This document shows positions 10,801-47,540 of a stretch of 60,175 nucleotides of DNA, piece after piece (within the stretch, counting starts at the first letter, position 1; every line of letters starts with the position of its first letter). The notes under the pieces were generated by a model that saw only the letters and a program-made list of their open reading frames with translations, had not been told where the DNA came from and did no database searches. Location: the IMG/VR virus record IMGVR_UViG_3300030433_002650, positions 1-60,175 of that record. One strand, given 5' to 3'. A program made the translations under genes and the position numbers. Source of the DNA: a virus (taxonomy: Duplodnaviria > Caudoviricetes).

Positions 10801-13800
10801 CGAGCGTACAATAATTGCATCCTCGGCTACGCCCCATTCACCGAGCGTACGACCGTCACAGGCATACAAATGACGTACATCAACTGCTATTCCATCTTCT
10901 TGATTCGGATTAGGGTGATTGATGGCTACGTTGGTAGCGTACGCAAGTACTTCATCGGTAACCAGTGTTGTCCAGTTAATACGTGATGATAGTAACACAC
11001 GCATGGTGTTGTCCGAAGCGTGAGGTTGTGTCCTTGTTGCATCTATTACAGTTCCACTACTGACGTAGTGAGATGATACAAAGGATTCTCCACGTACCCC
11101 ATAAAAGATGTGTGTACCCGTTATATCATCCACTGTACGTGATTCGTAAGATAGTGCATTTCCAACAAATCCATCAGCAGTTGTACCTGTAAATGGGTCA
11201 TGTAAATGTATGACACCATTTGAGTGAGGGTAACCAAGATAACCAAGTAAATCAGGATGGTTTGCCAATGGTGAAGACGATGCGCTTGTGTTGAATGGTG
11301 CTTCAAACACAACAGTGAGTGTGTTTGCTGTACCATCCCATGTTACCTCCGCATCAACTCCAGCATCAGGAGCGTACATACCTCTCCATCGGTTACCACG
11401 CCATTTAGAAAGTTGAAGTCCTGATACATCTAAGCGACCAGTAGGGTCACCCCAACCGAGCATATGACCACCAAGAGTAAAACCGCCCATAGAAACATCA
11501 TCATCATTGATGTGAATAATAACTTCATCTTCTAAGGTAGAAGGCAATGTAGTATTTTCATCGGAAAACGCTTGACCGAATTTACGGTAGACATAACGTA
11601 CACCATATCCACGACCTCGATGGTCTGTGAATCTAAACCCATACAATGGTGTATCGCCTATTGCGTCTTCTGTAGTTTCATTTGGATTAACATGCGCTGT
11701 GTATGAAGCAATAGCAGTCGGGTCATTGTCACCAAACTTAATGGCTTCACCGTACTTGTAATCAAATCGTTCATCACCTCTTCGACCAAAACCATGCTTA
11801 CCTGCATCGGGTGCAAAACCGGGTACTCCTGATGCTACAAGACCTCCAAAGTTGATACGACCAATCGCTTGCTTACCTGCACGCAATCCTTCAACAAGAT
11901 TAGTTGAAAGACCTTGAACTTCAAACGATTCGTCTGATACCGTATTGTGATTGATGCCACCAATACGTGCCGACACATTGCGGTTTTCTGATGCTGTGTT
12001 TGATTTACGATTACCAACATCGTGATTGTTTGTGAATGGCTCATCGGGTTCTTCTTGGAGCACGTATTCACGCAGTGTTGTAACAGGAGCAAACGGGCGA
12101 CCATGCTTGTTAAGAGGCATTGGTGCTGGATGCATGTTCTCGCCCAATGTTTCATCAGGCTGACACCAAAAGTTACGGAATCGCCCACCGTGTCCAATAA
12201 GGAATTGCGGCTTGTAGTTCGATTGACCCTTACTGTTGTCAAGCCATACACAGAAATTACGACCTGATGCACCGGGTACGGTGGAGTGAATGACAATTGA
12301 GAAGCCCTCGTTGCCATTCATGTCTTCAACAACACGTCCAATGTGAGCACGTACATACCCCATGTGGCTACCACGGTCGTGAGTATCGAATGCTTCTTCT
12401 ACAAACCACCACGGTGCAGGGTCATAAGTTGAACCCGTAGCGGCGAAATCAGCATTGATGTGTGCGCTACTGGGGTCTTTTGCATCAGATGTAACATCCT
12501 GTCGTACACCAATACGTGTGAGGTCAAGACTTTCGCTTTCACCGGGGTATTGTTGAGATGGACGACGGGCATGAGTTCGACCGTTCTTTGCCCCACCTTG
12601 ATTGATTAAACGTACAATTTCACGAGTAGCGGCCTCAATATCCGTCACACCCTCTTTGACACCAACTTCACCGCAATCAATCACCATACGACGTACGAAA
12701 TCCATTTCTGTCCAATGTGGTAAATGCTCCAAGCGGTCTTCTTCATGACTTGTTAAGTCGAGTGTAGTAGAGCGTATGCCCTTCAAGCCCAAGAATGCTG
12801 AAATACAACGTGTACCATCAGGTGTGTCGAACAGTGTACTTGCATCACGGAAACTGTATAATGATGGGTCTTTGGACAACCTGTGTAGTTTCAAAGCCTC
12901 TACGAATCTATCTCGGCTTGGTAATCGAGAAATCTTATGCTTCTCATTCGCCCAATACGTTGAAGCCACAGCAGGTTCAACACGAGGCAACGCATTATCA
13001 CTTACAGCGTAGATGTTACTATTGTAACCATACATTAGTCCTGAATGTACAAAGTGACCGTGACCTTTGCCCATCAACTGTTTGTTGTTTCCTCTTGTTG
13101 TAGGGTCTTCAATCAAGAAATTTGCATCACTATTCGCTATATCGTGTGCATAGGCTGATTCGATAAACTTTGATTGTTGCGTGCTACGCAGGTATTTGTT
13201 TTCGCTTGGGAATCCATTGGCTACGTCAATTTGTGTTGTAAAGTAATGCGGTGCACCACCGTTGTGAGATACCAAGAAACGGTCGAGTTTTGCTACACCA
13301 CCTGCGTGTACAATGTCACGACCAAACCCAATGTTCGGTGTAGCCGCACTTGATTGAACCTGCATATGTAGGTCATGGAATGCAATAAATTCACGGTCAT
13401 GGGCTACATCGTAGAGCAATACACGAGCATGACCTTCGGTAGCAAGATACGGGTCTACGTAGGCTACTCTCGGAACGTCTGTATACGAACTACCAAGCAA
13501 TGATTCGTAATTCAACTCAATTGTTTTATTGATGTGTTGAGCCAAATTTTGCGCCGTTTCCAAGCACGTATTTCCAATCAAGAAATTCTCAAGAGGTATT
13601 GAATCACGAGGACGACTGGCAAGTGAACCACGACCACCGTTGAAACCTTTCCATACAAGATGCTCATTGTAAACACCACGACTCTTACAGAACAGACCTT
13701 CCACCGCATGTGGATTGTTCATGGTCATGTTCATCCATACGGTATCACCGTTTCGCATACCACCTGCGGCGAATGGATTAAGCCATGTGGCGTTCAATAT

Positions 13801-16800
13801 ACCATCATGGTCTTCAGGGATGATACTATCTACTGATACACGAATCTTGTCACCTACTGCAACAGCACAAGCATTGTTTGCTGTTAGTGTAATGATTGTG
13901 TTTGTCGTACCACCGACGACATCAGAAACAACCGAAGATACCTTACCAAGATAATCAATGTCACTTCCCGATATATCATCAATGTACAACTCATCGTCTT
14001 TGCGTATATTCAATCCTATTGTATTTGATGATGCAAGCCTATCCGATGCAGTAGTAGTAATCTCAATTGTCGTAGTAGTATCGCTCGAAGCCGCTACAGC
14101 AACAGTCCATTGTTCAGATGTATCAGGAAGGAATGTCAATGCTGTACGCTCAACAGTAATTGCCGTAGAAGCGGATGCGGCTGAATGTAATGCACGACCG
14201 ACTCGCTTGAGTTTCAGTGTAGCGTTTTCAAGCCCAGTAAGTGACGTACTTGCTGATTGACAATATACAACGTTAGGTTGGTCTGTAACGCCACCCAAAT
14301 ACGAAGAAATTCTACCTAAGTATATGAGTTCATGAGTAGTTCCATCCGATAGTACAATTTCTGCAACGTACATCAAATCTCCTTCACTCACACTAAGCAC
14401 GTTGGAAGAATCCAGTGTGTATTCATTTAATTCAGGAAAAGTGCTTGCGTCTTCAAGTGTGATTGAGTACAATCCACTGCTGTTTGATACCGATTTTATG
14501 ATTGATTGTGCTACGCCCGACTGCACTCGTGGAGCATGAGGATTGACAAGTGGACCTGCTTTGATTTCAATTGCACTTACGTACTGTCGAAGACCATAGT
14601 CAAGATTACCGCCTTGTGTTTTGACGTTGGCATTGTCGTAATAGTACGGTGAACGTGCTTCATAATCAGAAGAAGGTGTTTCATTGTCAGATGCTATTGG
14701 AAGTAAATTTTCACTGCGGTAGCCCTGTGCAATAAAGAGAGCAGTTTGCGGCACTGCGCCTTCAAAGAAACCCTTAGCGTACGAACCTGATATGACACCA
14801 CTCGTTCCAGTTTCATGCTCATCAACACGAAGATAACCATCGCTACTGGGGTCATTACGGTACACACACCACATGCCGTTTGCCAAGAATGCACGTCGAT
14901 AACGAGGTAGTTTCTTCATGTTGCTATATTCAAACACCGATGTATCAACAGGCGGGAAAAGCGATGGATGCGACACATAAATTTTGTAGAATTTACCGCT
15001 TGAATCGTACTCTACTTTTGTAATTGTTGTAGAGGAAACGTAGTTTTGATTGTTGATGTTGTAGGAATAGGCTGATGATGCAGTACGGTCGGCTACCTGA
15101 ACATCGTCGGCACGTCGTCCAACAGGTGTAGGGTTCCAAGTGTGCGCTGTATACGTAGCATCAATGTGTATTTTCATGCTGTTGTCAGGTCCGGGGAATA
15201 CGTTTTCGTTCTCATGGTCAAAAAATTGCTGTGGGAAAAACGGTATCTCAACCATTGCACGAGTGCTTGAGTATTGTGAACCCAACTGATAATCATGCGT
15301 CACTCCGTCCATTGACTGGAATAAACGGTCATTGACTGTGCTACCGTCTTGAACAAGTGAATCATCGTTGAAATTATCATCGTTGTAAATAGATTCGGAA
15401 ATCGCTTCCGTAACACTGTTTCCTGAAGTAGCAGTACCTCTTAGTAAACCTGTTTCTTTGACCCAAGCGTAAAAACTTGGTACGGCAGTTCCGTCACTTG
15501 TTAAGAAACGGCCTTCACTCACAGCGTCAGCATCATTTTTGAAAACAAACCCAACCCCAGTTTTTGCTTCATAAAGCGCACTTGCACCATCAGCAAGATA
15601 GACTCGGCCAACCTTTGGAAAACAATACGTTCCCCATGAAACCAAATCGGGCGACTGATTGTTCAGTGGTCGAATTGTAATAGAATCGGTAACACCGCTT
15701 GTTGTGCTGTTTGTAGCAACAACTTCTGTTGCCTGTACAGCACACATTCGCCGTGTAGAGCCGGGTAGACGCATTAGCGGAGAAGGGTCGAAGGTGGGCT
15801 TGGTATTGACCGCCCCTTGACCGGGACCGCCAAGCGTGACAGTAACGACAGGCGCATTGGGTTCAATCTCTTTGACGACGTGAGAATCAGGCGAACCACT
15901 ACCAAGGACATTGACGTTTTGCGATAGTGCGCTTTCAGCAATGCCGTGAATAGTTACCTCGGTGGTATGCATATTACTGTCACCATCGACCTTTTCAGCA
16001 ATGCTACGAACTCGTCCACGAGTCATAAGTTCAAGCAATGTAAATTCTGATTGTTGTATACTTGTCATAGTATTCAACTTGTTCAATTGATTCGTGCGAT
16101 TTCGATTCGTAGGATGAATAAACAATCTTCCTTTATTTTCATCCAATGTAAGTGTATTGTCAATAACATCAAACATTTCAAAGGTATGACTTTTCAAAGT
16201 CATTGGTGAAATATCAAATTCCCCAGTGCTTGTTTTATCAGCGATTGGTTGTAATACACCATTTGTAACAGTATTGCTTTCCAAACCTGTGCTTGGATTC
16301 AATAAAATTTTATGATAAACGGATTCATGTACAGCGTTATTGTGTGATTTATTGACAACCTTCGGTGCTGATGCAGGGGTAGCAGTGGTATCGTTTACAG
16401 GAGTGTAATTGACAGGACAAGTAGAAAAATCAAGTTCGGCATCATTTTCCTCCCCGCCTGTGCTGTCGCCCAGTAATGAATGTGGATTTTGTAGTGCTGT
16501 GCTTAATGTAGTGTCCGTGGCAGTTACATCAATGTAGCCACCGGGTGAAAAGAGCACTGTGTTTGCAAGGTCACTGGTAATCACATCAATGACACGAGTA
16601 CCACTACCTAAGTCAAAAGACCCTGCTGGTACAGTTTTTTCAACCATGAGCATCGGACCACTAATCCCCATGCTTGCACCTGTCAGGTCAATTGCATTGT
16701 AGTGAATTTCGACAAACGGTGCAAGATTATGAGAGGACTGTAATGCAGGTACTTTGAGTAACGCAATGCGAGATTCTTTTTCAGGTCGTAAATGGTATAA

Positions 16801-29158: not shown

Positions 29159-30259
29159 TCACTTCAAATCCCGAATGGAACCGTGACCTCCAAAGAAAGT
29201 AGTCCAAAGTTCTCCCATTGTGCGGTACATACCTTCTTGTCCAAGACGGTTGATGGCGAATGGGTCGCCAGTTTCAATTCCGGACTCGAAATACTGCGTT
29301 GGGATTGCAGTGGAGAAGTAAAGGTAGTCAGTGTCGAGGAAGTACATACGACTTAGAACGTCAGGTTGTACATCCTTGGAAGGAATGATTGGGACACCGT
29401 TGTATGTAGCAACGATGAAACCTGCCTCAATACCGGGTACACCCTTTACACCATTGTAGGTAGGGGTGACACGCTTCTCTTCCATGAATCGCTGTTGCGA
29501 CTGGAGGAGTTGCTGTAGACGCATGAGTGTGTCGTATCCAGTAAGGATAACCTTCGGGTTACCACCACGAGTCCAAATCTTTTGGAAGAGGTCGTCAAGG
29601 TGGTCGAGGGAGAGCACACGGTCTGTACCACTGTTCTCGTTGTGTTCAGCGAGGGACCAAGAGTTTGCACTTCGGTCGATGCTGTACATGTCCTCGTTTG
29701 CGGAGGCTGATGCACCAGTGGTAACACGGTCGAGGGACTCGAAATCGTTCCCTGCAACAGTTCCCTTGTCAGCAGTCATCATCTTGTTGATGTGTTCAGC
29801 GTGGTGCTTACCCATCTCTTCCTTGAGGATTGCTCGAATGTCGCCAAGTCCATCGTCCTTGTCAGCAAGGAACATTGCGGTTTCGCTCATGTCGAATGTG
29901 TGGACAACCGTCTTTGGCTTGGCCGCAATGTGCTGGAAGGTAGGCTTGGTTGTGTCAGGTAGTGTAGCGTTTTCAGCAACACCGCCGCCCTTTGCGAAGG
30001 AAGGTCGTGCGGTGATGACTCGCCATCCACTGCGCTCCCAAGGTCGCTTTGGTAGGATGGAGAAAGCGTTGAACTCTTGGTTCAACTGGCTCCAAACCTT
30101 GCGTCCGTAGATTGCTTGGTATGTACCTGCGGTCGTAGACAGCATAGGTGCGTCAGCCTTGAGCAACTCGCTACCGGAGTAGGAGTAACCCATGGCGTTA
30201 CCTGCGCCGTAGTAATATCGTTCCATGTCTGTAATGCTTCGGATGTAATCTCTTGCCAT
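29159..30259 (-). CDS. Major capsid protein (HK97 fold)
   Basis: Downstream of protease/scaffold. GGGVAENATLP (E-loop), AAKPKTVVHTFDMSE, YNGVPIIPSKDV...MYFLDTDYL, YRTMGEL...HGSIRDLK. ELLK-ADAP is a candidate maturation site. Strong AGGAG SD. Confidence 0.9.
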   Translation of the reverse strand: MARDYIRSITDMERYYYGAGNAMGYSYSGSELLKADAPMLSTTAGTYQAIYGRKVWSQLNQEFNAFSILPKRPWERSGWRVITARPSFAKGGGVAENATLPDTTKPTFQHIAAKPKTVVHTFDMSETAMFLADKDDGLGDIRAILKEEMGKHHAEHINKMMTADKGTVAGNDFESLDRVTTGASASANEDMYSIDRSANSWSLAEHNENSGTDRVLSLDHLDDLFQKIWTRGGNPKVILTGYDTLMRLQQLLQSQQRFMEEKRVTPTYNGVKGVPGIEAGFIVATYNGVPIIPSKDVQPDVLSRMYFLDTDYLYFSTAIPTQYFESGIETGDPFAINRLGQEGMYRTMGELWTTFFGGHGSIRDLK

Positions 30260-30277: not shown

Positions 30278-31657
30278 TCAGGCTCCCCTCAACGTCTTGT
30301 TTGCAAGGCTGTGAACCTCATCCCATGACATGTTACCCAAGTCTTGGGTTGAAGGAACTTCAACAGTTGCGGAGGAAACAGACTTTGCGATGGTGTGGCT
30401 CTCGGTGCTCAAGTTATCAATGCGCTCGGAGAGGTCACCAATTGACTTGAGGACTTCTGCAAGAGGTCCACGAGCATCAAAGGTGCTTCGTTCTGCTTCT
30501 TGCTTCTCGATTTCGAGTTCCTTTGCAAGTCGCTGGGAAAAGTTTGCTTCCAAGTTGTTTCGGAAGTTTTGTTCAAGAGATGCGGCCTTGTAGACTGCGT
30601 ATGCATTCTCGATGTCGGCTTGGGAAACGTTGCCTTCATTGAGGTAACCCTTAGCCACTGAAACTGGTCCAAGAGCACCTGCTGGTTGCTTGCCACCACC
30701 AGAGGTGAGGGCTGAAAGAGCACCAGTGGAAGGAGAACCGTTTTCCTGTCCTCGTCCACGGACTTGACCAGCAAAGTAGTCAGCACCATCAACGGAATCA
30801 GGGTTGTCAAATCCACCAAGTTGAGCCTTAGCCAAGTCGTCAAAGTGTGCACGAGCACTACCAATATCGACTCCAGCCGACTTCAATGTGTCTTCCATCC
30901 AGTTGAGGTATTCGGATGTAATAACATCACCAAATTCTTCACCTTTCATGTACGCCATTTTGTCGTCATCTTTCTTTTCTTCTTTCATGTCTTCACCATC
31001 TTTCTTTTCTTCTTTTGGCTCGTCATCTTTCTTATCCTTGATGTGCTCACGGAGTTGAGGAGGAATTTCTCCCTTTTCCATTGCATCAAGTCGGGCTTCC
31101 AATCGTTCCATAACGCTGTTCAAATCAACTTCACTTGTCATATTTGTGTCCTCCTTTAGTATACTGAATTGTGCTTCAGGATTGATGCCCTTCTCACAAA
31201 TAGTAATTTCATGCAATTCCATCTTTGAAATCTCTTGGTAGTCGCCTTTGATGCTGTCAGACTTTCGCACTCGCTTGAATGCTTGTCCTCCAATTGAGAA
31301 TCCACGAAGGTTACCCTTGCGAATCTCGGCGGCTACTTCACGAGCCTTCTCAATGTCGTTGCGGAGTTGAACAACAACAAACATGCCAGTGTCGTCACAT
31401 TCGGACTTCCACATTCGGCCATTGCTGTCTACGTAAGAATCCAAGACTTCACCGACTTGGATGTTTGAGTGAGCCAGTTGTACATTGCGGTACTTGTCAC
31501 TCTTCATGAACCCGTCAAATGCATCCTTTAGAGCACCACGAGTAATAAGGTCGCCTTGCTTATCGACCATTTCGACGCTTGCATAACCTGCAACAACCAA
31601 GTCAGACCCACTCTTGAGGAGAGTGATGTCCATATTGGGTCGCTTTAGCGTCAGCAT
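30278..31657 (-). CDS. Prohead (maturation) protease, HK97-type, fused to C-terminal scaffolding domain
   Basis: VVAGYASVEMVDKQGDLI, LAH (catalytic His), LRGFSIGG (catalytic Ser) and LHEITICEKGINPEA, followed by a coiled-coil/acidic scaffold region. Confidence 0.9.
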   Translation of the reverse strand: MLTLKRPNMDITLLKSGSDLVVAGYASVEMVDKQGDLITRGALKDAFDGFMKSDKYRNVQLAHSNIQVGEVLDSYVDSNGRMWKSECDDTGMFVVVQLRNDIEKAREVAAEIRKGNLRGFSIGGQAFKRVRKSDSIKGDYQEISKMELHEITICEKGINPEAQFSILKEDTNMTSEVDLNSVMERLEARLDAMEKGEIPPQLREHIKDKKDDEPKEEKKDGEDMKEEKKDDDKMAYMKGEEFGDVITSEYLNWMEDTLKSAGVDIGSARAHFDDLAKAQLGGFDNPDSVDGADYFAGQVRGRGQENGSPSTGALSALTSGGGKQPAGALGPVSVAKGYLNEGNVSQADIENAYAVYKAASLEQNFRNNLEANFSQRLAKELEIEKQEAERSTFDARGPLAEVLKSIGDLSERIDNLSTESHTIAKSVSSATVEVPSTQDLGNMSWDEVHSLANKTLRGA

Positions 31658-31695: not shown

Positions 31696-34600
31696 CTATA
31701 CTTTGGAAAGTACAGGTTCATCGTCTTTGAAATCCAAACTAAGGTGCTCGCCTTCTTCGGTATCTGTTTCAACAGGCTTGAAGTGTTGCGGTTTTTTCTT
31801 TTTCTTAGGTTCAATATCATCCACTCGTTGATGATAGTCAGGTAGATTTTGCTCATCAGTAAGTTGCGTTGGTCCAGCAGGGGATTCGACAGGTGTTCCT
31901 AAATCAATACCAAGTCCCTTCGGTCCAGTCCATGTCATACGTTCTTTTGCAAGTTTATCCAATGTACGTACAATAACTTCCAATGCTTTTTTCTTATCTT
32001 CGGGCTTGAGCAATAAGTCTTCGTCGTCTTCTTCGATAATACCTACTGAACCTTCTTCCATACGCTTTGGTGATGGCTTCTTTGGCATTTCAAGGTCTTC
32101 GACTTTTGATTTCTTTTGCAATTGGCCGCTAAACAAAAGCGGAGCAAGTGGACTCCAAAACGGCTGTAGGCTTTCAGCCAGTGTTACACTGTAGTCGTTT
32201 TTGTACAAATCACCCATTGTACTCACTGGGGAATGCACGTACCACATATCACCGACTTCATCAACTTGATACGTTACAGTATCAATGTCCTTTAGAATAA
32301 CGTGTAAACCATCTTCATCGTATTCAACGTCATGTGGGATATTGATAGGTAGGTAACCTTTGGTTAGCAAGTCAAGCGACTCGGTGCTCGCTGGACCCTC
32401 ACCCTCACCCTCACCTTCGATTTGACGAATCTGTACAGTGTAGACGTTTTTCTCACCACGAGTTTTCTTGGTAATGCCGCTTACTGATACTCGTACAATG
32501 TCACCAACTTTGTACGCCTTTTGCTCACGTCGTGCTGTACCTATGTCCATGTAGTGCTTATCGTCAATTGTAACGGCTCGGTTTTGCAGTCCTTCATCAT
32601 CAAGCAGTGGACCTGCACCTAATTGGTATGTGTATGGTCCATTTCCTCGTCGGTCAAGTACAATGAAGTTGTAGTCACGAGTCGGTCGGTACAATACCCA
32701 CTTTGGATGTCGATACTCACCTTTCATGTACGTCGATTTAGAATCACGCAACAAGATGTTATCGTGGTCATCTTGCATTCGCTTGACAGATTCTTTCAAG
32801 CCCTCACTATCTGTCATTTTCGTATCGTGCGGTCCGGGTACAATGACATTCTCGTGACTTTCAAACTGTGAGCGAAGAATCTTGACACGTTCAAACAACA
32901 GCATGTCGCTGATGTCATTGTTGTCGTAATTGATAATATCAATGATATTGAGGTCTTCATCCCCCATAATTCCATCAATAGCGTAGTTTTTGTCGCTTAC
33001 TTTCACCAGTGCTTCACGGTGGTTCTTGCGAAGACCAACCTTCTTACCCTTCTCATTCAAGGCAGTGACTTCATCACCATTTTTGATAAGCATGACACGC
33101 TTACCGTCGTACCACTTTGATACGACCCATGAACCACTAAATCCACGTAGATGTTCTAAGTCACTCATCTCAAAGATGCGATGCATTGGACGAATCAAAG
33201 GAGTCCACTGTGGGTCTTCTTCTTTCATTAACAACTCATCGGGATTAAGCATTCCTTGAATAAACTCCGTCATTTCATTGAGAGCCAGTTTGTTCGGGTC
33301 TTGTCCGATTGGTAGGAACGTTTCAGGGTCAAGACCGAAGATAGGTAGATTGCTTTCTCTTGGTGGTGGGGCGTTACCCCATACTTGTTCTCGGACTTCT
33401 TTACCATGTACCATGTCAGTAAGTTCGTGTGGTACAGTATGATACAACCCTTCCTCAACATTTGTACCTGCCACAATTTGACCATCGGCTGTAAACTCTA
33501 CACCAACCGATGGAGAAGCAAGCCATCCACCGTGATGTCCACCTGCATCAAATGTATCAAAGATGCTGTGATTGTTAGGATTAGGCGCACCTACAGGTAC
33601 TTGTGTCATACCGGGTCTTGCACTAATGGAAGTTGTAGGTTGTTCCATTCGACCTTCTTGTTCAACCATTGGATTGTAATGCAATATTGTGTCCAAGTTG
33701 TTTCGTGTCGTAGCGGCGATTTGAGGAAGACCTTTTCCTGATGAACCACGCTTGTATTGTTGAGCACCGTGTACATCGTTTTCAATCATCTCTAATCCAT
33801 TTGCATCAGCCAATGCTGTGAATGAACCACCCATAAGTTGCTTTACACGACGTGGTAATGAGTGTAGTTGAGGGAACGACTTGAACGCACTTGGTTTCTT
33901 AACCTCAGAGTAAATAGTATCGAGTGCACCATGATACCCATTTTCTTGAGCCAACTTTGAGAAGCGCATTGCATCGTTCAAGTCTTTGTCATCTTGTTCG
34001 AGTATACTTTTATCGTGAAGGTGTGTAATGTCACTGTTGTGCAAATCCGTTATGTTGCCATGCATCAATAGTTGATTAACCGTAGAAGCAAACAATGGTG
34101 TGTTCATTTCATTTGACCTGTCGATAATTGAACGAGCATGTTCTTTCATTTCAGGAGTCTTTGGTAACGCCAATGCTTCAAGCACTTCTTCCACACTCAT
34201 GTTACCGTCTACTTGGAATCCATGTTCTTGCAAATGCGATGCTACGTTTTGATGGAAGTTACCATTTGCAGGGGGTTTATCGTACGTTATATCGTCAAAT
34301 GAAAGACCATAACCAAGTGTTTGCAATCCATGTACATCGTGCGGTACATGGGTAATGTATCGTTGTGCATCACGGAACATTCGTGCATTGTTGTCAATGA
34401 ATTTTTGCGGGTCGTTTGGGTCAAAAGCAGTAGGGTCAGCCTCAAGCATTTTTTCTTTAATCATCGGTGCAACTTGTGCCACCAACATACGATGTGCTTT
34501 CTTGAGGTCTTCTTCACGTCGTTGGTCGATTTTCCAATGCGTTGTCATTTTACCTTGAGTGCTTTCAATGGCTTGCTGTTGAAGCGAAGTCAATTCAGCA

Positions 34601-37440
34601 ACCTTTTGAGAAAGTTGTTGTTGAATAAGTGGCTTGTCAATATCATCTGCCTCAACCATACGTTGATTCAAATCATCAACTTCTGCTTGGAGTTTTTCTT
34701 CTTGTTCAAATGCAGGGAGTGCTCCGCCAAAACTCAAACCACTGGTAACAGCGTCAAGAAGTGTTGGCTTCTTATGCTTAAACGAGCGACTACGATTTGA
34801 CAAACTTATCAGTACATCATCCAAGAAATTATCAACAATTTGTTTTACAGGTGTAGAATCGTTTTTTGGGAAACCCATACGTTGTTTCAAATCTTCAAAG
34901 TCTTCTTTTTCCAAATAATCCAAAATTGCCTTTGGGTTTGTCGATTGGATGGTTTTTGATATTTCAGTTAAGAAACGCAATCCTTCACGTTGTTCACTAC
35001 TTTGCAAGTAGTCTTTGACTTTACCAAACGACGGTGATGGGACACCCCATTCTAAATACGCAAGCATATCTTCGGTGGTTTCACCACCACTTACTGGTTG
35101 AGCACCCCGTATGAAATCATTAAACGATAAAACAGATTTTTCAGTAGGATTGTTCAAGTGATTGAATCGACCCAGTTGCATAATTTGTTTGTGAGTGTCT
35201 TGTGCATTATTGACAATGTGCTTATCGCTTCCATATGGTGCATAATTACGATACGAACCGTGATGAATGAATGGATTTCTTGTAAGTACATTGTTAAACG
35301 CTTTGAGGTGAGGTTGATTTTCAAACAAATCTTTTCGCTCACCATCAGTCATATGTCGTATTGCATATTCATAGGGGGCTGAAAGCGACGATTTGTGTTC
35401 AGTGAAATTGTTCTTGGTCGTTTTGCCTTCTTTGAATCCTGATTTTGATGACGCACTTGGTACTGGTCGTGAAACATTTGACGGTGAAAGTATATTCTGA
35501 ATGGTTTTCAATTCAGGGTGGTAAACATATTTTTCTACATTTGCATCGTATTGACCATGCTCTTGAGAGTGTTCAGGCATAAAGTGAGCACCCAAAGAAA
35601 GATTGTTTTGATTTGGCACGATAACAGTTTTTTCACCACTTTTACCAAAATCATGCATTTCACCGAGCAACGATACGCTGTCATCGTCTGAAGTAGTAGC
35701 GTGAATAATTTCGTTGTACGTAGGTAATGTCATACCCGCACCACCTATTCCTTGAAACGGCTTTGACCAAAAAGAGCCAAGACCGTAAGTATGTCTTCCG
35801 TCTTCACTTGTGCGCCAATACGAAGGCTTGTCTTCACTTGGTGCTGGTCCGAAAGCGGCTTTCAAAAAGGATAAGTGCTTACGAATATCTTTTTCTTGTT
35901 GTTGCAAATTCATGGATGAAGATGCATCTTCCTCGATGTTTTCAATCCAATCAAGTGGCACAAGTGGTCCATCCATTTTACCGTAAACAGGGTGCATCGA
36001 AAGTGGTTCTCTTGTTTTAGGATGAAAACCCGCCATGTACAGAATGTCTTCAATGGGTAATCTTGCATGGTCTACTTTCATGGTTCTTTTACCAAATTGT
36101 GCTCGTTCAGCATCTTTCAACTGCTCCCATTCCAATTCAGGAAGTTCGCCTGTTTTGTGAAGATTAAGTCGTGGTAAAAACTTCATTCTTTGCTTGTAAC
36201 CTTTTCCAGCGTCTTCTCGCATTCCATCGTACAATTCATTGATTTCATTGAGAATAATATCAGCGATGGACTCATCGTTTGAACCGTATGGAAGATGCGC
36301 TCCTCTTGCCATTCCTGATTGTAAGAAACGACCCGCTTCACTTGCTTCATAATCAGTATCATTGTCTTCCAATCGAAGTGAAGCATTACGTCCTAACATT
36401 CTCGGACTTCGTACAGCCCAATTCATTTCAGGTGTCATTCGCATAATCGCATTGTGCGTAAAACGAGCCGATGGTACTTTTTGCCCGTTTGGTAATTCAA
36501 TCAAGTGATTATCATCCACACCTTCACGCATACCTTTCATAACCGCAGTACGTTCTTCAGGTGACAACCACTCAAGGCCAAGCATGTAACCTTGATGTCC
36601 TAATGCAGTTGGATGAATTTTGTAATTATCATCAATCAAAGTGTCTTCACTTACCCATTGCCTTGCTCGGTCATCAAAATGGTCTTCACGCAATTTTTGA
36701 AAAACATCCTTTGGAGTCATACCCATTGCACGATATTCATCTTCTCGTTCTGTGTTTTGTTTTTTCCATCGTTGAAAATCACGCTGATAAAGGTCTTTTT
36801 GATGTGAAAGCATTGAGCCGTTTTGCAAAATACTTCCAAGCAGTTTGAATGTTTTATCTGTTCCTTCGGGTTGAAACCCAAATAGCAACGGATGTTTTTG
36901 TTTTGAAAGTTCGCTTAAGTAATCCTTTTCCATTTCTTTTTCTTCGTCCATGTACCCGCCAAATGTGTGTGCTCGAAGCATTTCGACATAGTGCGGCATA
37001 CCTGTTACAGAATGCAAACGAAGAAGCGGGTGATTGGCGGGGTGAAATGGGAAGTGATATTCTTTGTAGGGGTGACCTGCTGTTGGCCGGTACACAGGCC
37101 ATACGGAGTGGTGGTCAGCGTTTTTCTTACCACGTTGTAGTCCATCAACCCAAATGTGGTTTGTCAAATCGTCCTGTGTGTCTTGCGTATTGAGAAGTAA
37201 TCCCGCACCTGTGTCTGTCCCAGTATCGTATTCATACTCAAACGTATCTTCGCTTTCTTCTTTTTCTTTGATAATCGCATCAGCGATTGAATACAACGAT
37301 GTGTAAATGATTTCGCTTGGTGCTTTTTGCATGGATTGCCATGCTATAATGTATTCAGCCGCATTACGTTCAAGGTCAAGTTTGTCGTCCAACGACTTTA
37401 GCAAATCGGCACTTGCAATGTCAAGTTGGTCATACGACAT
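31696..37440 (-). CDS. Large (~1915 aa) protein with C-terminal ATP-dependent DNA ligase-like (NTase + OB) region that appears catalytically degenerate
   Basis: WVVSKWYDGKR, YAIDGIM, IIDIINYDN, LFERVKIL and ILLRDSKSTYMKG...KWVLYR, then OB-like YKVGDIVRVS (about 32360-33230). Start placed at MSYDQL behind GGTGA. Confidence 0.7.
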   Translation of the reverse strand: MSYDQLDIASADLLKSLDDKLDLERNAAEYIIAWQSMQKAPSEIIYTSLYSIADAIIKEKEESEDTFEYEYDTGTDTGAGLLLNTQDTQDDLTNHIWVDGLQRGKKNADHHSVWPVYRPTAGHPYKEYHFPFHPANHPLLRLHSVTGMPHYVEMLRAHTFGGYMDEEKEMEKDYLSELSKQKHPLLFGFQPEGTDKTFKLLGSILQNGSMLSHQKDLYQRDFQRWKKQNTEREDEYRAMGMTPKDVFQKLREDHFDDRARQWVSEDTLIDDNYKIHPTALGHQGYMLGLEWLSPEERTAVMKGMREGVDDNHLIELPNGQKVPSARFTHNAIMRMTPEMNWAVRSPRMLGRNASLRLEDNDTDYEASEAGRFLQSGMARGAHLPYGSNDESIADIILNEINELYDGMREDAGKGYKQRMKFLPRLNLHKTGELPELEWEQLKDAERAQFGKRTMKVDHARLPIEDILYMAGFHPKTREPLSMHPVYGKMDGPLVPLDWIENIEEDASSSMNLQQQEKDIRKHLSFLKAAFGPAPSEDKPSYWRTSEDGRHTYGLGSFWSKPFQGIGGAGMTLPTYNEIIHATTSDDDSVSLLGEMHDFGKSGEKTVIVPNQNNLSLGAHFMPEHSQEHGQYDANVEKYVYHPELKTIQNILSPSNVSRPVPSASSKSGFKEGKTTKNNFTEHKSSLSAPYEYAIRHMTDGERKDLFENQPHLKAFNNVLTRNPFIHHGSYRNYAPYGSDKHIVNNAQDTHKQIMQLGRFNHLNNPTEKSVLSFNDFIRGAQPVSGGETTEDMLAYLEWGVPSPSFGKVKDYLQSSEQREGLRFLTEISKTIQSTNPKAILDYLEKEDFEDLKQRMGFPKNDSTPVKQIVDNFLDDVLISLSNRSRSFKHKKPTLLDAVTSGLSFGGALPAFEQEEKLQAEVDDLNQRMVEADDIDKPLIQQQLSQKVAELTSLQQQAIESTQGKMTTHWKIDQRREEDLKKAHRMLVAQVAPMIKEKMLEADPTAFDPNDPQKFIDNNARMFRDAQRYITHVPHDVHGLQTLGYGLSFDDITYDKPPANGNFHQNVASHLQEHGFQVDGNMSVEEVLEALALPKTPEMKEHARSIIDRSNEMNTPLFASTVNQLLMHGNITDLHNSDITHLHDKSILEQDDKDLNDAMRFSKLAQENGYHGALDTIYSEVKKPSAFKSFPQLHSLPRRVKQLMGGSFTALADANGLEMIENDVHGAQQYKRGSSGKGLPQIAATTRNNLDTILHYNPMVEQEGRMEQPTTSISARPGMTQVPVGAPNPNNHSIFDTFDAGGHHGGWLASPSVGVEFTADGQIVAGTNVEEGLYHTVPHELTDMVHGKEVREQVWGNAPPPRESNLPIFGLDPETFLPIGQDPNKLALNEMTEFIQGMLNPDELLMKEEDPQWTPLIRPMHRIFEMSDLEHLRGFSGSWVVSKWYDGKRVMLIKNGDEVTALNEKGKKVGLRKNHREALVKVSDKNYAIDGIMGDEDLNIIDIINYDNNDISDMLLFERVKILRSQFESHENVIVPGPHDTKMTDSEGLKESVKRMQDDHDNILLRDSKSTYMKGEYRHPKWVLYRPTRDYNFIVLDRRGNGPYTYQLGAGPLLDDEGLQNRAVTIDDKHYMDIGTARREQKAYKVGDIVRVSVSGITKKTRGEKNVYTVQIRQIEGEGEGEGPASTESLDLLTKGYLPINIPHDVEYDEDGLHVILKDIDTVTYQVDEVGDMWYVHSPVSTMGDLYKNDYSVTLAESLQPFWSPLAPLLFSGQLQKKSKVEDLEMPKKPSPKRMEEGSVGIIEEDDEDLLLKPEDKKKALEVIVRTLDKLAKERMTWTGPKGLGIDLGTPVESPAGPTQLTDEQNLPDYHQRVDDIEPKKKKKPQHFKPVETDTEEGEHLSLDFKDDEPVLSKV

Positions 37441-37453
37441 ACTTTCACCGCCA

Positions 37454-38056
37454 TCATAGCGGCTTGAATGCTGGACATGCGTGGAGGTCAGCACCCATCA
37501 TTTCAGGCATTTTGCAACCAGTTTGTTGTGTTGCACCGCATTCTCGGCAAATTGTTGGTACTGGGCGTTGCTCACTCATCTCACGCATAAGAGCCTTGCT
37601 GGATGCTTTTTCGAGTTTCTTTGACTCACCCATTGCATCTTCCCTATCCACACCGCCACCTGCATGTGGATTCATACGAGTTGAAAGTTGTTCCATGTTG
37701 GTTGCATCTTTACCCTTCTTTTTCTTTGGTGCATCTTCTGTTTCGATGGTCTTACCGTTGGTGGTAAAGTAACCACTCTTGGTTTGTCCACCCGATTCAG
37801 CCATGAAAGCAGGGTTTACGTCTGTGATTTTTTCAGCCTTGAAACCGGGTTCGGCTTTTGCCATTTTGCCACCGCAACCCATTTTCATACAGTTGCCCAT
37901 CTTGTTCATCTTAGAACCACAACTTGGGCAGTCTTTACAGTCACACTTACCTTCAGGGCAGTCGCACTTTCCTTTGATAATTTCCAATTGACTTAGACGG
38001 TGCTCAATTTCTCTTGCTTTGGTAAGCAAAGGTGCTTCACTTGGACGGGGCTTCAT
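37454..38056 (-). CDS. Cys-rich hypothetical head-region protein
   Basis: KCDCPEGKCDCKDCPSCG and a C-terminal CRECG...C...HAC; several hydrophobic-x-K-A/G sites. Confidence 0.65.
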   Translation of the reverse strand: MKPRPSEAPLLTKAREIEHRLSQLEIIKGKCDCPEGKCDCKDCPSCGSKMNKMGNCMKMGCGGKMAKAEPGFKAEKITDVNPAFMAESGGQTKSGYFTTNGKTIETEDAPKKKKGKDATNMEQLSTRMNPHAGGGVDREDAMGESKKLEKASSKALMREMSEQRPVPTICRECGATQQTGCKMPEMMGADLHACPAFKPL

Positions 38057-38798: not shown

Positions 38799-40589
38799 TT
38801 ACCGCCCTCTCGGTCTACGGGCATTCAATAATGCGTTTGAAACGTTTTGCATCATAGAAGGTTCAGGTCCACGTTGCTGAACGCTTGAAATCGGTGAACC
38901 GCTTCCCATTGTACCACGTCGTTGTGGTGCTACTGGACCACGATTTCGTATACCCATTCCTTCACTACCGGGTTGTAGTGGCGGTGCGATACCGGGAGGA
39001 AGTTGTCGTGATTGTGGGGGCATTGCTCCCATTTGCGGTGGCATTCCGCCCATCATCTGTGGGGGCATACCTCCACCGGGTGGCATTGGTGGCATACCTC
39101 GACCACCCATCATCTGTGGAGGCATACCACCGGGTGGAGGTGCACCACCGGGTGGTGGTGCTGGCGCAGGTGGTGGCTTACGGTAGACAAATCGTACATC
39201 ACGGTTCGATGGGTCTTCCAAGAGTTCAGGTTGGAATCCAAGTTGTGCCATACGTTGTGCAACGTTGAGTTCTTGTTCATCTCGTCGTAGACGTGTAATT
39301 TCATCCTCTTCTTCGTTTGGATAAAGTGTGAGTTTCCAATCATGAATGTTCATTTGACGAAGTAGACGTGGGAACAATACTTCTGTGTACACTTTTTGAC
39401 CAAACTCAACAGCACGATTGGTAACAAGAATTTGCAGTCCTTCATTGTTCAGACCGCCTGATTTACCATTATCAACCATGAAGATTGACGATACACCGTA
39501 GAAAGCCGCTATGCGATTACGTATCTCGTCACGCACAGCGATATACTGCATTTCTTCAAGCGTGTCCATGAATTTAATCCAATTTACACCACCACGACCC
39601 GATTGTGATTCAATACCAACACGAGGAATGTAATGTGGGTCACGTTCCAACTTCTCATCAGTAGCCTTCCAAAAAGCCTTCATGGATTCAAGGTTGTCCG
39701 TTGTAACAGATATGACACCCTTTGGAATACGGCGTTTTTGATACGCCGTGTAAATATAGTTGTCCATTGCCGTCAATGTCATGGCTTGTCGCCACATGGT
39801 ATTGACAGGAGAGCGACCGTACAATTTTGATGGATTGTATTTTGAAACATGCAGTACTTCCCCTTCAACAAAGTACTGCGTCTTACCGCTACCTGCCATA
39901 TTGACGTAATGGACATCTTGAAGGTCAGAACCACATATCTCGCATGTATCGTCTTCGGCATGGGTTTTGACTTGTTCACGGTGTATCAAACAGGTTTTGT
40001 ATCGTCCACCACGTACACCACGCTTGTCAGCAACAATACGCATGAAAATAGGGTCACCACGCACCATTTCTTTGACTCGATAAAATTGTACTTCTTTGGT
40101 TTCAGGGTCAATAAAGTACTCCTTTACCAAAATCAAAAATGCGTCGTCAATGATGTTAAGGTCATTTTCAACTTCATGGAGTAGATGGTGAAACGATTGC
40201 TCCATGCTGTTTTCTTGCTTAAGTAACCACTTAGCATAGGTTAGTTCATCAGGGTCAGGCTTACGTACAGCACCACCACATTCTTTGCACGCTTCCATTT
40301 CTTGCTGATATTCTTCATCACACGCTGTGCATTTTACAGTGAAACGCTTCTCCCAGTAGAATCCACGTCGAAACATTTCTTGACGTAGTTTTGAAAGTAC
40401 AGTACGTAAAATAAGTGATTCGTTGCTTACTGCAAACAATGCGGGGAGTGTAATACCCTGCGCCATGACAGGTTCTTGAATACCGCTTGACCAAAGCGGC
40501 ATAGTTGGTGTAGGACTCTCACGACGACGGAATGGACTTCCGATAGCCGATAGGAATCGTGAGATTCGTCCTTGTTCTTCCGCCATCAC
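38799..40589 (-). CDS. Portal protein with two inserted Zn ribbons and a P/G/M-rich C-terminal tail
   Basis: DLNIIDDAFL, EVLHVSKYNPSKLYGRSP, RIPKGVI and EIRNRIAAFYGVS are HK97-family portal motifs; lies between terminase and protease. Confidence 0.9.
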   Translation of the reverse strand: MMAEEQGRISRFLSAIGSPFRRRESPTPTMPLWSSGIQEPVMAQGITLPALFAVSNESLILRTVLSKLRQEMFRRGFYWEKRFTVKCTACDEEYQQEMEACKECGGAVRKPDPDELTYAKWLLKQENSMEQSFHHLLHEVENDLNIIDDAFLILVKEYFIDPETKEVQFYRVKEMVRGDPIFMRIVADKRGVRGGRYKTCLIHREQVKTHAEDDTCEICGSDLQDVHYVNMAGSGKTQYFVEGEVLHVSKYNPSKLYGRSPVNTMWRQAMTLTAMDNYIYTAYQKRRIPKGVISVTTDNLESMKAFWKATDEKLERDPHYIPRVGIESQSGRGGVNWIKFMDTLEEMQYIAVRDEIRNRIAAFYGVSSIFMVDNGKSGGLNNEGLQILVTNRAVEFGQKVYTEVLFPRLLRQMNIHDWKLTLYPNEEEDEITRLRRDEQELNVAQRMAQLGFQPELLEDPSNRDVRFVYRKPPPAPAPPPGGAPPPGGMPPQMMGGRGMPPMPPGGGMPPQMMGGMPPQMGAMPPQSRQLPPGIAPPLQPGSEGMGIRNRGPVAPQRRGTMGSGSPISSVQQRGPEPSMMQNVSNALLNARRPRGR

Positions 40590-45374: not shown

Positions 45375-47540
45375 TCACCTCAAATTCATCTTTATGATTT
45401 TTACAACTTGAGGCTTGACATTGTACGACTTTGCAATGTTATGCCAGTCGCCCATTGTATGTTGTATGGCCGTAACTTCGCTACTGGTCAATCCTGTGTA
45501 TTTTGCAAGATTTACTGGTGATTGTAGCGATGGAGTAATGTGTGAAGAAACGTCACCGTCAAGGCTTGCTTCTTTGTATTGCATACGTTCAAGAGCCTTC
45601 ATCAGTCTGTCCATAAGTGGAAGATGCATGTCCTCGGCCTTCATGTAATCAGTCAGCAGACGTTGGCGTGGGTCTGATAAGGCTTGCTGTGACCTTGCTT
45701 CCAATTCGGTCAAAGGAGCATCGCTAATTGGTTGCGGTCGGGTCGCCCCTGCAATTTGCAACATTTCACGGAATTGCGCTGGTGTAAAGTCAGCAATACC
45801 GGGTCGTAGTTGTTGAAATTCAGGAGTAGGTGTCCCAGCCGGCTGAACAACAGGACGATTTTGCTGTGGTGCGGGAACAGGCGGAGGTGTTCTTGCCTGT
45901 TCAACGGGAGGTACACCTTCCGGCTGGGACATTCCTTTTTTGTTTGGCGCAAAATCATCTATAGTATGAAAATACGCTTCCATATGTTCATCCAATATTG
46001 GCGCAGGGAACTCACCCGTTTCAGGGTCACGAATAGGATAACCGTGAATGGTTTGCATTCGCATTGGTTCTGTTGGGATTTCACCAATATCCATTTGCAC
46101 AGTGTGACCTCGTGCTTCGGCTTGGTGGTTGGCTAATGCTTCAATGACGTTACGGAATCGGTCTACTTGTTCAAGTCGCTGTTCACTGTATGGTAGCCCT
46201 GCGGCCTCAAGTTCATCAGCCGTAATTTGATGTTCACCAAACCTACTGCGGCTTTCGTTTTCACCTCGACCCGAAGAACGTGCAACCGACATAACACGCT
46301 TTGCGTTCTTGTGCAAGCCTTGACCACCTTTTTCCCCTGCCCTGAAGTACTTGCCATGTTCTTCGGCTGAAAGTTCATCTTCGGGCGCACCGAATTTTGT
46401 CATCATATAATCGTACAACTTTTTGAAATTACCTTGATAACTGCGACCAAACAAATACATCAGTGCGGGTACATGTGCCATGTCTTTAACAAGTGCTTCT
46501 TTGAGGTCTTTGTTTCCAAGAATTTCACGAAGACCTCGCTGTATCATGTTTGGTGCGCCAAGTGTACCTGTATTGAGCGTAACTGGTACATCAGGAATAG
46601 ATTCAATACCACCCTGCTCCAATGCTTGGTCAATCATGGCGTGAGCCGCCTCTACAAGTTTTGTCGGTGCTTGACCCCCACTCATAATGTCTTTGTCCAT
46701 TGAACGTGACGGATAAAAGAAAATGTCAGGTAAGTGATGCACTGTTTCCCATGTATGCACACTTTGTTGTTCAGGGAAATAATCATCAGGGGCATTACCC
46801 ATCATTTCACTGGTGTACGTATCAGGATGCTCTCCCTTACTTGAATACGCCCAACCCTGCGGTGCAGTGTGTTTTGCATAGACATACGGATAGGTTACAC
46901 CTGATTTAAGAGAACCTTTGATTTGACGGTCTTCATACCCCATGTCTTGAAGCAAATGAAACAGATTTTGATGAAATGGAATGTAATACGATTCAATAAA
47001 TCGACCATGCGGTGTTTCATCTGGATTTTTGTTGGTAAGTGTTGTAATTAACGTATTGTTGTGTGTACGACTTTGACGGTCAGTAATTTCTTTTCCATCT
47101 TCATCCTTTGATGTTATTCCTTGAGGTAATTGATTTGCTCGTATTTTTCGCCATGCTAAATTGTCAAACGGAGGTAGTTCGTGGTGATGTCTATGTGTGT
47201 GAGAACGATTAAAATTATCAATTGCTTTATTGATAACCGCAATAGGGTCTATGTCACCTTTACCTGTTTTATTCAAAAAATCCGCAAGTTGCATCGCTAA
47301 AGCGTCAATTCCGTGATAAAAATTACCGTGTTGTGTCTTATACGCTAACGGACCTGAACTCGAATCAAACTCACCTTCGATAACATCTCCACGTCCGTTG
47401 TGTGCAAAAGCGGGAATATCAGGTTCATGCGGTGGACGAAACGTTGGAGCAGGTGGATTACGTACATTAACTGGTCCTTCGGGTGGGTGAAGTATCATAC
47501 TCCATGCTTTGAGCAAACGTGGAGGCTGAATACGAATCAT
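45375..47540 (-). CDS. Hypothetical 721-aa protein (putative internal head protein)
   Basis: MIRIQPPRLLK-A leader; PIP-like RQRLLTDYM near the C-terminus. Confidence 0.65.
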   Translation of the reverse strand: MIRIQPPRLLKAWSMILHPPEGPVNVRNPPAPTFRPPHEPDIPAFAHNGRGDVIEGEFDSSSGPLAYKTQHGNFYHGIDALAMQLADFLNKTGKGDIDPIAVINKAIDNFNRSHTHRHHHELPPFDNLAWRKIRANQLPQGITSKDEDGKEITDRQSRTHNNTLITTLTNKNPDETPHGRFIESYYIPFHQNLFHLLQDMGYEDRQIKGSLKSGVTYPYVYAKHTAPQGWAYSSKGEHPDTYTSEMMGNAPDDYFPEQQSVHTWETVHHLPDIFFYPSRSMDKDIMSGGQAPTKLVEAAHAMIDQALEQGGIESIPDVPVTLNTGTLGAPNMIQRGLREILGNKDLKEALVKDMAHVPALMYLFGRSYQGNFKKLYDYMMTKFGAPEDELSAEEHGKYFRAGEKGGQGLHKNAKRVMSVARSSGRGENESRSRFGEHQITADELEAAGLPYSEQRLEQVDRFRNVIEALANHQAEARGHTVQMDIGEIPTEPMRMQTIHGYPIRDPETGEFPAPILDEHMEAYFHTIDDFAPNKKGMSQPEGVPPVEQARTPPPVPAPQQNRPVVQPAGTPTPEFQQLRPGIADFTPAQFREMLQIAGATRPQPISDAPLTELEARSQQALSDPRQRLLTDYMKAEDMHLPLMDRLMKALERMQYKEASLDGDVSSHITPSLQSPVNLAKYTGLTSSEVTAIQHTMGDWHNIAKSYNVKPQVVKIIKMNLR

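Follow-up and report, generated by a model that had tools for sequence, protein, structure and literature searches.

A DNA ligase module without its catalytic residues is the most conserved part of a giant head-module protein of magrovirus-like viruses

The DNA analysed here (hereafter the window) comprises 60,175 nucleotides, positions 1 to 60,175 of the IMG/VR virus record IMGVR_UViG_3300030433_002650, a 60-kb contig that is estimated to be 56% complete. Within the head module on its minus strand, the window encodes a giant protein whose C-terminal quarter harbours the core of an ATP-dependent DNA ligase. Judged by alignment, this module has lost the residues for the classical lysine-AMP pathway, yet no other part of the protein is under stronger constraint. 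The corresponding gene of a sister clade encodes an intact ligase. The giant gene had been singled out in an earlier note, made from the sequence alone, as a pseudo-ligase fused to a large region of unknown nature. Residue numbers throughout count from the GTG start of the single open reading frame (ORF) 31696..37494 on the minus strand, which has 1932 codons. The true start is likely the ATG at 37440 (residue 19, MSYDQL) because the alignments of homologues begin at residue 15-19 and the upstream gene ends at 37454. The protein would thus consist of 1,914 aa with a mass of 217 kDa. At least 93% of the giant protein is spanned by 61 of its 73 homologues, with identities of 34-94%.

The ligase-like module and its catalytic motifs

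Residues 1400-1932 were modelled with AlphaFold2 using 79 aligned sequences. The model has a mean predicted local distance difference test (pLDDT) score of 83.1, and its core blocks are mostly above 90. A comparison of the model with the PDB by Foldseek yielded 140 matches at E <= 0.001 (best E 8.1e-14, probability 1.00). All 48 among the matches listed are ATP-dependent DNA ligases, with the enzymes from Thermococcus and Pyrococcus (E ~1e-13), the human ligases LIG3, LIG1 and LIG4, the African swine fever virus ligase and LigD at the top. The TM-scores are low (0.27-0.37), as expected for a multi-domain query that is compared with multi-domain targets in different conformations. Moreover, a family profile searched against the PDB found 4eq5, the ligase of Thermococcus sibiricus (E 2.7e-6), and BLASTP aligned the protein with P0189, a canonical relative of 858 aa, at 29% identity over 332 aa (E 1e-32). 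The single-sequence search was weak and reached archaeal ligases in the PDB at E 0.05. According to the model, residues ~1430-1700 form a two-domain ATP-dependent DNA ligase core consisting of a nucleotidyltransferase (NTase) domain and an oligonucleotide/oligosaccharide-binding (OB) domain. The ligase fold proposed in the earlier note is therefore borne out by structure prediction, Foldseek, the profile search and BLASTP.

The module resembles archaeal and minimal ATP-dependent ligases (4eq5, human LIG1 and LIG3) in its NTase and OB fold, and it keeps motif IIIa as well as the S-x-Y-x-x-G...P-K-W segment. However, it differs from them in lacking the catalytic lysine and in falling below the cut-off of the Pfam ligase family PF01068. 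Furthermore, no N-terminal DNA-binding domain of the type found in archaeal and eukaryotic ligases was recognised in the giant protein. The PF01068 match covers only profile positions 119-200 and scores 16.8 bits against a gathering cut-off of 26.2, and there is no match to PHROG or NCBIfam families. Thus, the warning in the earlier note that automatic annotation would call the protein a DNA ligase did not hold for this sequence. A precomputed PF01068 match is present in 10 of the 73 homologues.

The catalytic motifs were mapped with an alignment of 117 sequences, taken from the best 150 of 196 cluster representatives (phmmer with residues 1400-1932 as the query, E <= 0.001). Five of the aligned relatives (696-912 aa) pass PF01068 at ~1e-29 and carry canonical motifs. 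Where these relatives have EKYDGMR in motif I, LDAE in motif III, EGVVIKD in motif IV and KWIKWKK in motif V, the giant protein has SKWYDGKR, IDG-I, DNILLRD and KWVLYRP, respectively. The alignment of the family profile with the PDB also sets the family "w" ("wpeGkR") on the lysine of "KYDGAR" in 4eq5, and the same pairing, with Trp1461 on the lysine, is seen in the BLASTP alignment with P0189. Thus, the mapping agrees across three independent alignments (PF01068-positive relatives, profile to 4eq5 and BLASTP to P0189), and the first two uphold the assignment of the motifs in the earlier note. The column of motif III is the least certain of the four, as BLASTP places a nearby insertion differently.

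The loss of the lysine is conserved among the orthologs, whose alignment the earlier note had suggested. Position 1461 is occupied by Trp in 54 of 55 full-length homologues and by Ile in the remaining one, and S-K-W-Y-x-G-x-R is found at motif I in 80/80 related IMG/VR loci. In motif III, D1507 is kept and the Glu lies in a deletion or is replaced by Ile or Val. Position 1583 in motif IV is Arg in 55/55 full-length homologues (R110/K7 of the 117 members of the wider family), and in motif V, position 1601 is Leu, Ile or Val and position 1603 is Arg in 55/55. Across the 117 family members, position 1461 is variable (W50 M22 Y11 K9 L6 I5 H5 F4), and this drift is what would be expected of a position freed from chemical constraint.

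The earlier note had also considered that the lysine shifted by one residue could occupy the active site. A lysine is indeed present next door, but its conservation argues against such a role: Lys1460 is K48/T6/R1 in the 55 close homologues, and a lysine occurs in only 22/117 members of the wider family. Lys1460 was therefore rejected as a replacement nucleophile and is unlikely to be a new one. At the level of the aligned sequences, the residues on which the classical lysine-AMP pathway depends have disappeared, with Lys replaced by Trp in motif I, Glu lost from motif III, Lys replaced by Arg in motif IV and both Lys replaced by Leu and Arg in motif V. It is very probable that the module is unable to perform classical self-adenylylation and nick sealing.

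The loss of these residues has not been accompanied by a relaxation of selection. In five close pairs, the ratio of non-synonymous to synonymous substitution rates (dN/dS) is 0.025-0.038 for the module, as compared to 0.066-0.077 in the N-terminal part of the protein and 0.045-0.075 in its tail. The mean column conservation is 0.71-0.81 in the module versus 0.3-0.68 in the N-terminal 1,400 aa. The dead module is thus the most constrained part of the giant protein and under stronger purifying selection than the rest. Because it is the best-conserved stretch, has the lowest dN/dS and retains invariant residues at the level of the fold, the dead module is functional. Other invariant stretches in the module are the S-T-Y-M-x-G-E-x-R-H-P-K-W segment and GAGP.

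The syntenic ligase of the sister clade

The giant-protein clade is represented by 481 IMG/VR contigs, and P0189-type proteins occur in at least 502. In the sister clade (80 loci, L083-L162), the genes are arranged in the order portal, ~650-aa ORF, two small ORFs, 830-850-aa ligase protein, protease and capsid protein. The identity to the proteins of the window is ~48% for the portal and ~38% for the capsid protein. The motifs QEKYDGMR, EGVVIKD and W[IV]KWKK are intact in 80/80 of these loci. The homology between the giant and the 830-850-aa protein is limited to the ligase core (profile positions ~1403-1690), and profile matches to the 830-850-aa proteins were obtained in 9/9 loci inspected. 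Moreover, lineage-specific PM(H/Y)RIF...LRGF and LGAGP segments are common to the giant protein and the syntenic canonical ligase. Both terminal thirds of the 830-aa protein of the sister clade are unannotated.

A phylogeny of the domain was calculated with FastTree from 93 of the 117 aligned rows, leaving out 24 rows in which the domain had fewer than 200 residues. In this unrooted tree, one branch with a support of 100 splits seven rows with canonical motifs from 86 non-Lys rows. Five of the seven canonical rows have the lysine of motif I, and the other two are fragments that lack motif I and keep motifs IV and V. We infer that the intact ligase state is ancestral because it is universal in cellular ligases. 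According to the comparisons described above, the dead module descends from the same gene that encodes the intact syntenic protein in the sister clade.

The family also contains an intermediate subfamily (P0186, P0191, P0193, P0197, P0207, P0208 and P0210; 653-1,163 aa), in which only the NTase-like half matches. Four of its seven members have a lysine at the catalytic column, but this lysine stands in a K-P-x-G context without the Asp of motif I. Motif IV has Arg, motif V is without Lys, and no Pfam match was obtained in the five members that were scanned.

All five complete genomes of the sister clade (G005-G009, 90-96 kb) encode a second PF01068 ligase of 505-510 aa, and two of the five have direct terminal repeats. 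In four partial genomes of the clade of the window (66-88% complete), no second ligase was found with PF01068 or PF09414, and PF01068 gives only the weak match of the giant protein itself.

The giant gene, its neighbourhood and the virus

The features of the giant gene and of its neighbours are summarised in Table 1. The strings quoted in the earlier note (SKWYDGKR, DGIMG, DNILLR, WVLYR, ELLMK↓E at 1420-1425 and DLLTK↓G at 1708-1713; arrows mark candidate cuts) were all found where it had placed them, and DLLLK↓P at 1826-1831 is an additional site absent from its list.

Table 1. Features of the giant gene and of neighbouring head genes in the window
Feature	Position	Strand	Remarks
Giant head-module protein gene	31696..37440	-	1,914 aa from ATG, stop codon included
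N-terminal region, residues 19-1424	33223..37440	-	Mostly helical; no known family or fold
Candidate protease site 1, ELLMK (1420-1424)	33223..33237	-	Directly before the ligase-like core; predicted cleavage
Pseudo-ligase module, residues 1425-1712, 33 kDa	32359..33222	-	AlphaFold2, Foldseek, dN/dS
NTase-like part of the module, ~1430-1605	32680..33207	-	AlphaFold2/Foldseek
OB part of the module, ~1606-1700	32395..32679	-	AlphaFold2/Foldseek
Motif I remnant SKWYDGKR (1459-1466)	33097..33120	-	Trp1461 in place of the adenylated Lys; alignments
Motif III remnant DGIMG (1507-1511)	32962..32976	-	Asp retained, Glu absent; alignments
Motif IV remnant DNILLR (1578-1583)	32746..32763	-	Arg for Lys; alignments
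Motif V remnant WVLYR (1599-1603)	32686..32700	-	Both Lys replaced by Leu, Arg; alignments
Candidate protease site 2, DLLTK (1708-1712)	32359..32373	-	Directly after the OB domain and a GEGEGEGEG linker
C-terminal tail, residues 1713-1932	31699..32358	-	Small beta/alpha domain and conserved low-confidence loop
Tail loop TWTGPKGLGIDLGTPVESPAGPTQL (1854-1878)	31861..31935	-	Highly conserved, modelled at low confidence
Third LLxK-type site DLLLK↓P (1826-1831)	LLLK codons 32005..32019	-	In the C-terminal tail
Prohead serine protease (S78) with C-terminal extension	30278..31657	-	N-terminal LLK↓S at residues 13-15
HK97/SU10-type major capsid protein (MARDY start)	29159..30259	-	ELLK↓A ~31-34 residues in
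Portal protein	38799..40589	-	Sequence-family searches
200-aa Cys-rich protein	37454..38056	-	Directly upstream of the giant gene, synteny conserved

The region in front of the module is large and confidently folded. The AlphaFold2 model of residues 19-1218 (pLDDT 83.7, predicted template modelling score 0.73) shows a mostly helical body composed of several domains, and Foldseek found no match to it at E <= 0.001 in the PDB and in BFVD. Searches by sequence with the N-terminal 1,400 aa gave no match in Pfam, PHROGs, NCBIfam and the PDB, the family profile found nothing in the PDB, and nothing was found in the ESM Atlas. Thus, the description of this region as unknown in the earlier note, which had proposed the Foldseek comparison, is upheld by both sequence and fold. 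The N-terminal regions vary among the subfamilies and the C-terminal module is constant (coverage of P0065-P0074, 23-51%). The tail (residues 1713-1932) comprises a small folded part and a conserved loop of low confidence with the consensus TWTGPKGLGIDxGTPxESPxGPTxL. Throughout the superfamily, even where the N-termini differ, its P-x-G-P-T is near-invariant, and the loop may be a docking motif.

The minus strand encodes, in this order, the large terminase, a 439-aa ORF with a weak HNH match, the portal, two small ORFs, the 200-aa Cys-rich ORF, the giant gene, the S78 prohead protease and the HK97/SU10-type capsid protein, after which tail-tube-like and tape-measure-like genes follow. The head-operon setting described in the earlier note is thereby confirmed with an identified portal, protease and capsid protein. 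The order of the genes for terminase, 439-aa, portal, 125-aa, 115-aa, 200-aa, giant, protease and capsid proteins is kept in every sufficiently long locus. The 200-aa protein has CDC...CxxC repeats and matches no family. Across its 51 homologues, the N-terminal MKPR is conserved and the Cys-rich inserts are variable. The portal has conserved Cys pairs with a weak double-zinc-ribbon match and a long C-terminal tail rich in Pro, Gly and Met. Upstream of the terminase lies a 721-aa ORF (45375..47540, minus strand) without a family match, in which an LL.?K motif is located ~9 residues after the start. A 5,573-aa ORF (1870..18591, minus strand) downstream of the tail genes has no Pfam match at E <= 0.001 in either half; it could be a giant fibre or adhesin or a further cargo protein.

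Among 50,697 phage records, the capsid protein matches only archaeal viruses, namely the haloarchaeal siphoviruses HVTV-1, HCTV-1 and HCTV-5 at 35-37% identity and, more weakly, methanogen-associated viruses. A family B DNA polymerase (PolB) is encoded on 4/4 longer related contigs (71-95 kb). Several homologues of the giant protein are found on contigs of 103-107 kb, and the giant-protein family is also present in Tara and other metagenome sources. Magroviruses have been described as viruses of Marine Group II archaea with genomes of ~100 kb and capsid proteins ~33% identical to those of haloviruses, according to the main text of that study (Philosof et al. 2017, PMC5434244). Because the halovirus-like capsid protein, PolB, the synteny and the metagenome sources fit this account, the virus matches the published description as a magrovirus-like archaeal tailed virus. 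Cultured relatives of the giant protein were found neither by megablast nor by tblastn among the 50,697 phage records. When 185,579 species genomes were scanned, the sole match was NZQM01000019.1 (L167), an 18.6-kb contig in a metagenome-assembled genome (MAG) of "Parvibaculum sp.". It holds the same virus module, with a capsid protein 74% identical to that of the window, and looks like a viral contig that was binned into a bacterial MAG; hence, it provides no host link.

Possible roles of the module and relation to known systems

The best overall explanation that we can offer, with about even chances of being right, is that the dead ligase fold serves as a DNA binder in a packaged head protein. 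The module probably binds rather than seals DNA, and we tentatively suggest a clamp for a DNA end, a nick or another discontinuity of the backbone, for which the odds are somewhat less than even. Cargo proteins of the head are commonly encoded by large genes that lie between portal and protease. By a slight preponderance, we therefore regard the whole protein as cargo located inside the capsid at the portal side, which would be taken up into the procapsid and accompany the genome. According to this proposal, the giant protein would enter the procapsid from the portal side with the genome, the prohead protease would release the 33-kDa ligase-like module inside the capsid, and the module would encircle the discontinuity as a binder and might hold or protect the end or nick while the DNA is packaged or stored, or on entry. 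The boldest version is doubtful: a packaged protein of 217 kDa, from which the protease releases a dead ligase that rides on the genome end or nick into the host, with a working packaged ligase as the counterpart in the sister clade and a new fold at the N-terminus.

The release of the module would depend on the two sites that flank it. The consensus of site 1 is D-hydrophobic-L-L-x-K↓(S/A/E/G), with K1424 in 54/55 homologues, and that of site 2 is (S/T)-L-(D/S)-L-(L/M/I)-T-K↓(S/A/G), with T1711 and K1712 in 55/55. The proteins of the sister clade have LELLSK or LQLLAK at the position after the OB domain. Similar motifs occur in other proteins of the head module: ELLK↓A is found near the N-terminus of the capsid protein in 48/48 sequences, [LIVM][LIVM]K[SG] at residues 13-15 of the protease in 55/55 and hydrophobic-x-K-[AK] near the N-terminus in 50/51 homologues of the 200-aa protein. 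The aligned position of the capsid protein is LLK or ILK in the sister clade and MSK↓AD in HVTV-1. The S78-type protease of HK97 cleaves after Lys. Of the claim in the earlier note that the module is bracketed by protease sites, the conservation of the sites and their likeness to motifs in the capsid protein and the protease stand, but the motif is not enriched over the background. Cleavage at the two flanking sites is a reasonable but unproven inference, and a cut at 1424↓1425 and at 1712↓1713 that frees the 33-kDa pseudo-ligase is plausible at rather less than even odds.

Several observations speak against a protease-released DNA binder in the virion. The presence in the virion is deduced from the position of the gene alone, no MuF domain (PF04233) was detected in the whole window at E <= 10, and the family profile revealed no similarity to the large HVTV-1 proteins at the same position (best E 0.013, on the wrong strand). 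As regards the sites, LL.?K occurs four times in 1,933 aa versus ~2.9 expected from the rate in the window (0.0015/residue), so that the motif is not enriched in the giant protein. Moreover, the Lys of the N-terminal LLK↓S is found in only 39/55 homologues, the third site (DLLLK) is followed in 55/55 by Pro, which is an unlikely P1' residue, and the candidate cleavage motifs lie within short helices predicted by AlphaFold2. The module is acidic with an isoelectric point of 5.97; as the core of the canonical relative has the same value, the charge was discarded as a hint at DNA binding. The direct terminal repeats in two of the five sister genomes weaken a role in joining cohesive ends. Finally, R1466, D1507, R1583, D1584, K1598 and W1599, which are ligand contacts at the level of the fold, are invariant, and these residues leave room for a nucleotide-linked activity of some kind.

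The same gene position could also be explained by a late-expressed helper of morphogenesis or packaging that is itself not packaged. Nicks in concatemers would be repaired by the active ligase of the sister clade, either ahead of packaging or while it proceeds. The dead form would be a sensor or marker of nicks and branches on behalf of the terminase or a nuclease, or act as an assembly scaffold. Nicked DNA impairs packaging in T4, the gene belongs to the late structural operon, in the vicinity of the terminase, portal and protease genes, and the terminal redundancy of sister genomes (direct terminal repeats in 2/5) makes end-joining on entry not obviously needed. However, the size of the protein (217 kDa), its conserved candidate sites for maturation and its location at the usual spot of head-internal genes fit cargo better, and the 5/5 complete sister genomes already encode the separate 505-510-aa ligase for replication or repair. 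We consider the packaging helper unlikely. The invariant pocket residues and the variation of the N-terminal regions between subfamilies beside a constant C-terminal module would suit an ejected effector in anti-defence or host takeover. The dead ligase would then be a decoy for partners of the host ligase such as the sliding clamp, a blocker of host nucleases at DNA ends or a sponge for adenylate-type signals, and the real activity would reside in the N-terminal 1,400 aa. Large head-packaged multidomain phage proteins are described as conflict effectors in the accessible part of a survey, which also reports a paucity of such proteins in archaea (PMC5512222). Given this paucity, the absence of known conflict-system domains by Pfam, PHROGs and NCBIfam, and the fact that the ligase-like module is the most conserved part, whereas proteins in arms races usually vary fast, an effector is quite improbable.

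The invariant residues listed above are also an argument for an enzyme with altered chemistry, which could use another nucleophile (Lys1460 or a His), perform only step 3 on pre-adenylylated nicks or remove adenylate. Lys1460 stands one residue before the canonical position in 48/55 close homologues, and ligases without the lysine are not necessarily inert. One such mutant is K27A of the Chlorella virus ligase. According to the part of the report available to us, Lys-less ligase mutants still join pre-adenylylated substrates (PMC3514331). However, position 1460 is Thr or Arg in 7/55 close homologues and Lys in only 22/117 of the wider family, key residues have gone from four motifs and not from one, and the residue at position 1461 varies between W, M, Y, L, I, H and F, as expected once the chemistry is lost. 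An altered chemistry is therefore very unlikely, and we prefer a DNA-binding role in a packaged head protein.

A DNA ligase in the structural module of magroviruses has already been described, as stated in the main text of that study (Philosof et al. 2017, PMC5434244). It is a homologue from a distinct lineage with the same synteny, encoded in the structural module by the protease and the capsid protein. The features of the magrovirus lineage, archaeal-type tailed viruses of roughly 90-100 kb with a PolB of their own, are found here as well, with a head-module gene directly upstream of the prohead protease and capsid protein genes, and PolB on related contigs. However, the giant protein differs in that the Lys of motif I, the Glu of motif III and the Lys of motifs IV and V are lost, and in that the ligase core accounts for the C-terminal quarter of a protein of 1,914 aa. 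The main text of PMC5434244 contains no mention of inactivation, a lysine, a fusion or a multidomain architecture for the ligase, and in the accessible parts of later magrovirus papers and ICTV profiles, a "DNA ligase" is only mentioned. In literature searches for inactive or pseudo-ligases in viruses, no pertinent title or abstract was among those listed.

The giant protein also resembles the polyvalent and MuF-fused head proteins and the virion RNA polymerase of N4, which are very large multidomain proteins encoded beside the portal and proposed to be delivered with the DNA, as far as the available part of the survey goes (PMC5512222). It differs from them by the absence of MuF and of the described effector domains, by the archaeal host and by the dead-ligase core, and that part of the survey mentions no domain of the dead-ligase type. 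The haloarchaeal siphovirus HVTV-1, which by its capsid protein (35-37% identity) is among the nearest cultured relatives, likewise has large genes between portal and prohead protease, encoding gp113-gp115 (1,048 aa; "head assembly", 410 aa; "zeta toxin", 1,313 aa), but these proteins have no detectable similarity to the giant protein. Thus, a ligase homologue in the module was known, but its pseudo-enzyme state across a large clade, the fusion into a ~1,900-aa protein and the contrast between intact and dead forms at one locus appear to be undescribed.

To our knowledge, no magrovirus has been cultured, and the "second ligase" of the head module has remained a curiosity without explanation since 2017. 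The abstract of the original description presents magroviruses as abundant and as infecting archaea of a group that is itself among the most abundant in the surface ocean (PMC5434244). The present analysis flags a region of ~1,200 confidently folded residues without a fold match in the PDB or BFVD (E <= 0.001). Moreover, it reveals one gene position with two states, an intact enzyme in one clade and a dead but best-conserved part of a giant protein in a large and diverse clade, which provides a natural pair of active and inactive forms for experiments. If the boldest version of our proposal were true, the virus would possess a genome-escort or end-capping device that is derived from an enzyme fold and joined to an N-terminal machine of 1,400 residues. 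In any case, the contrast between the two clades poses a testable question: what is the role of a ligase fold in a virus head when it is unable to ligate?

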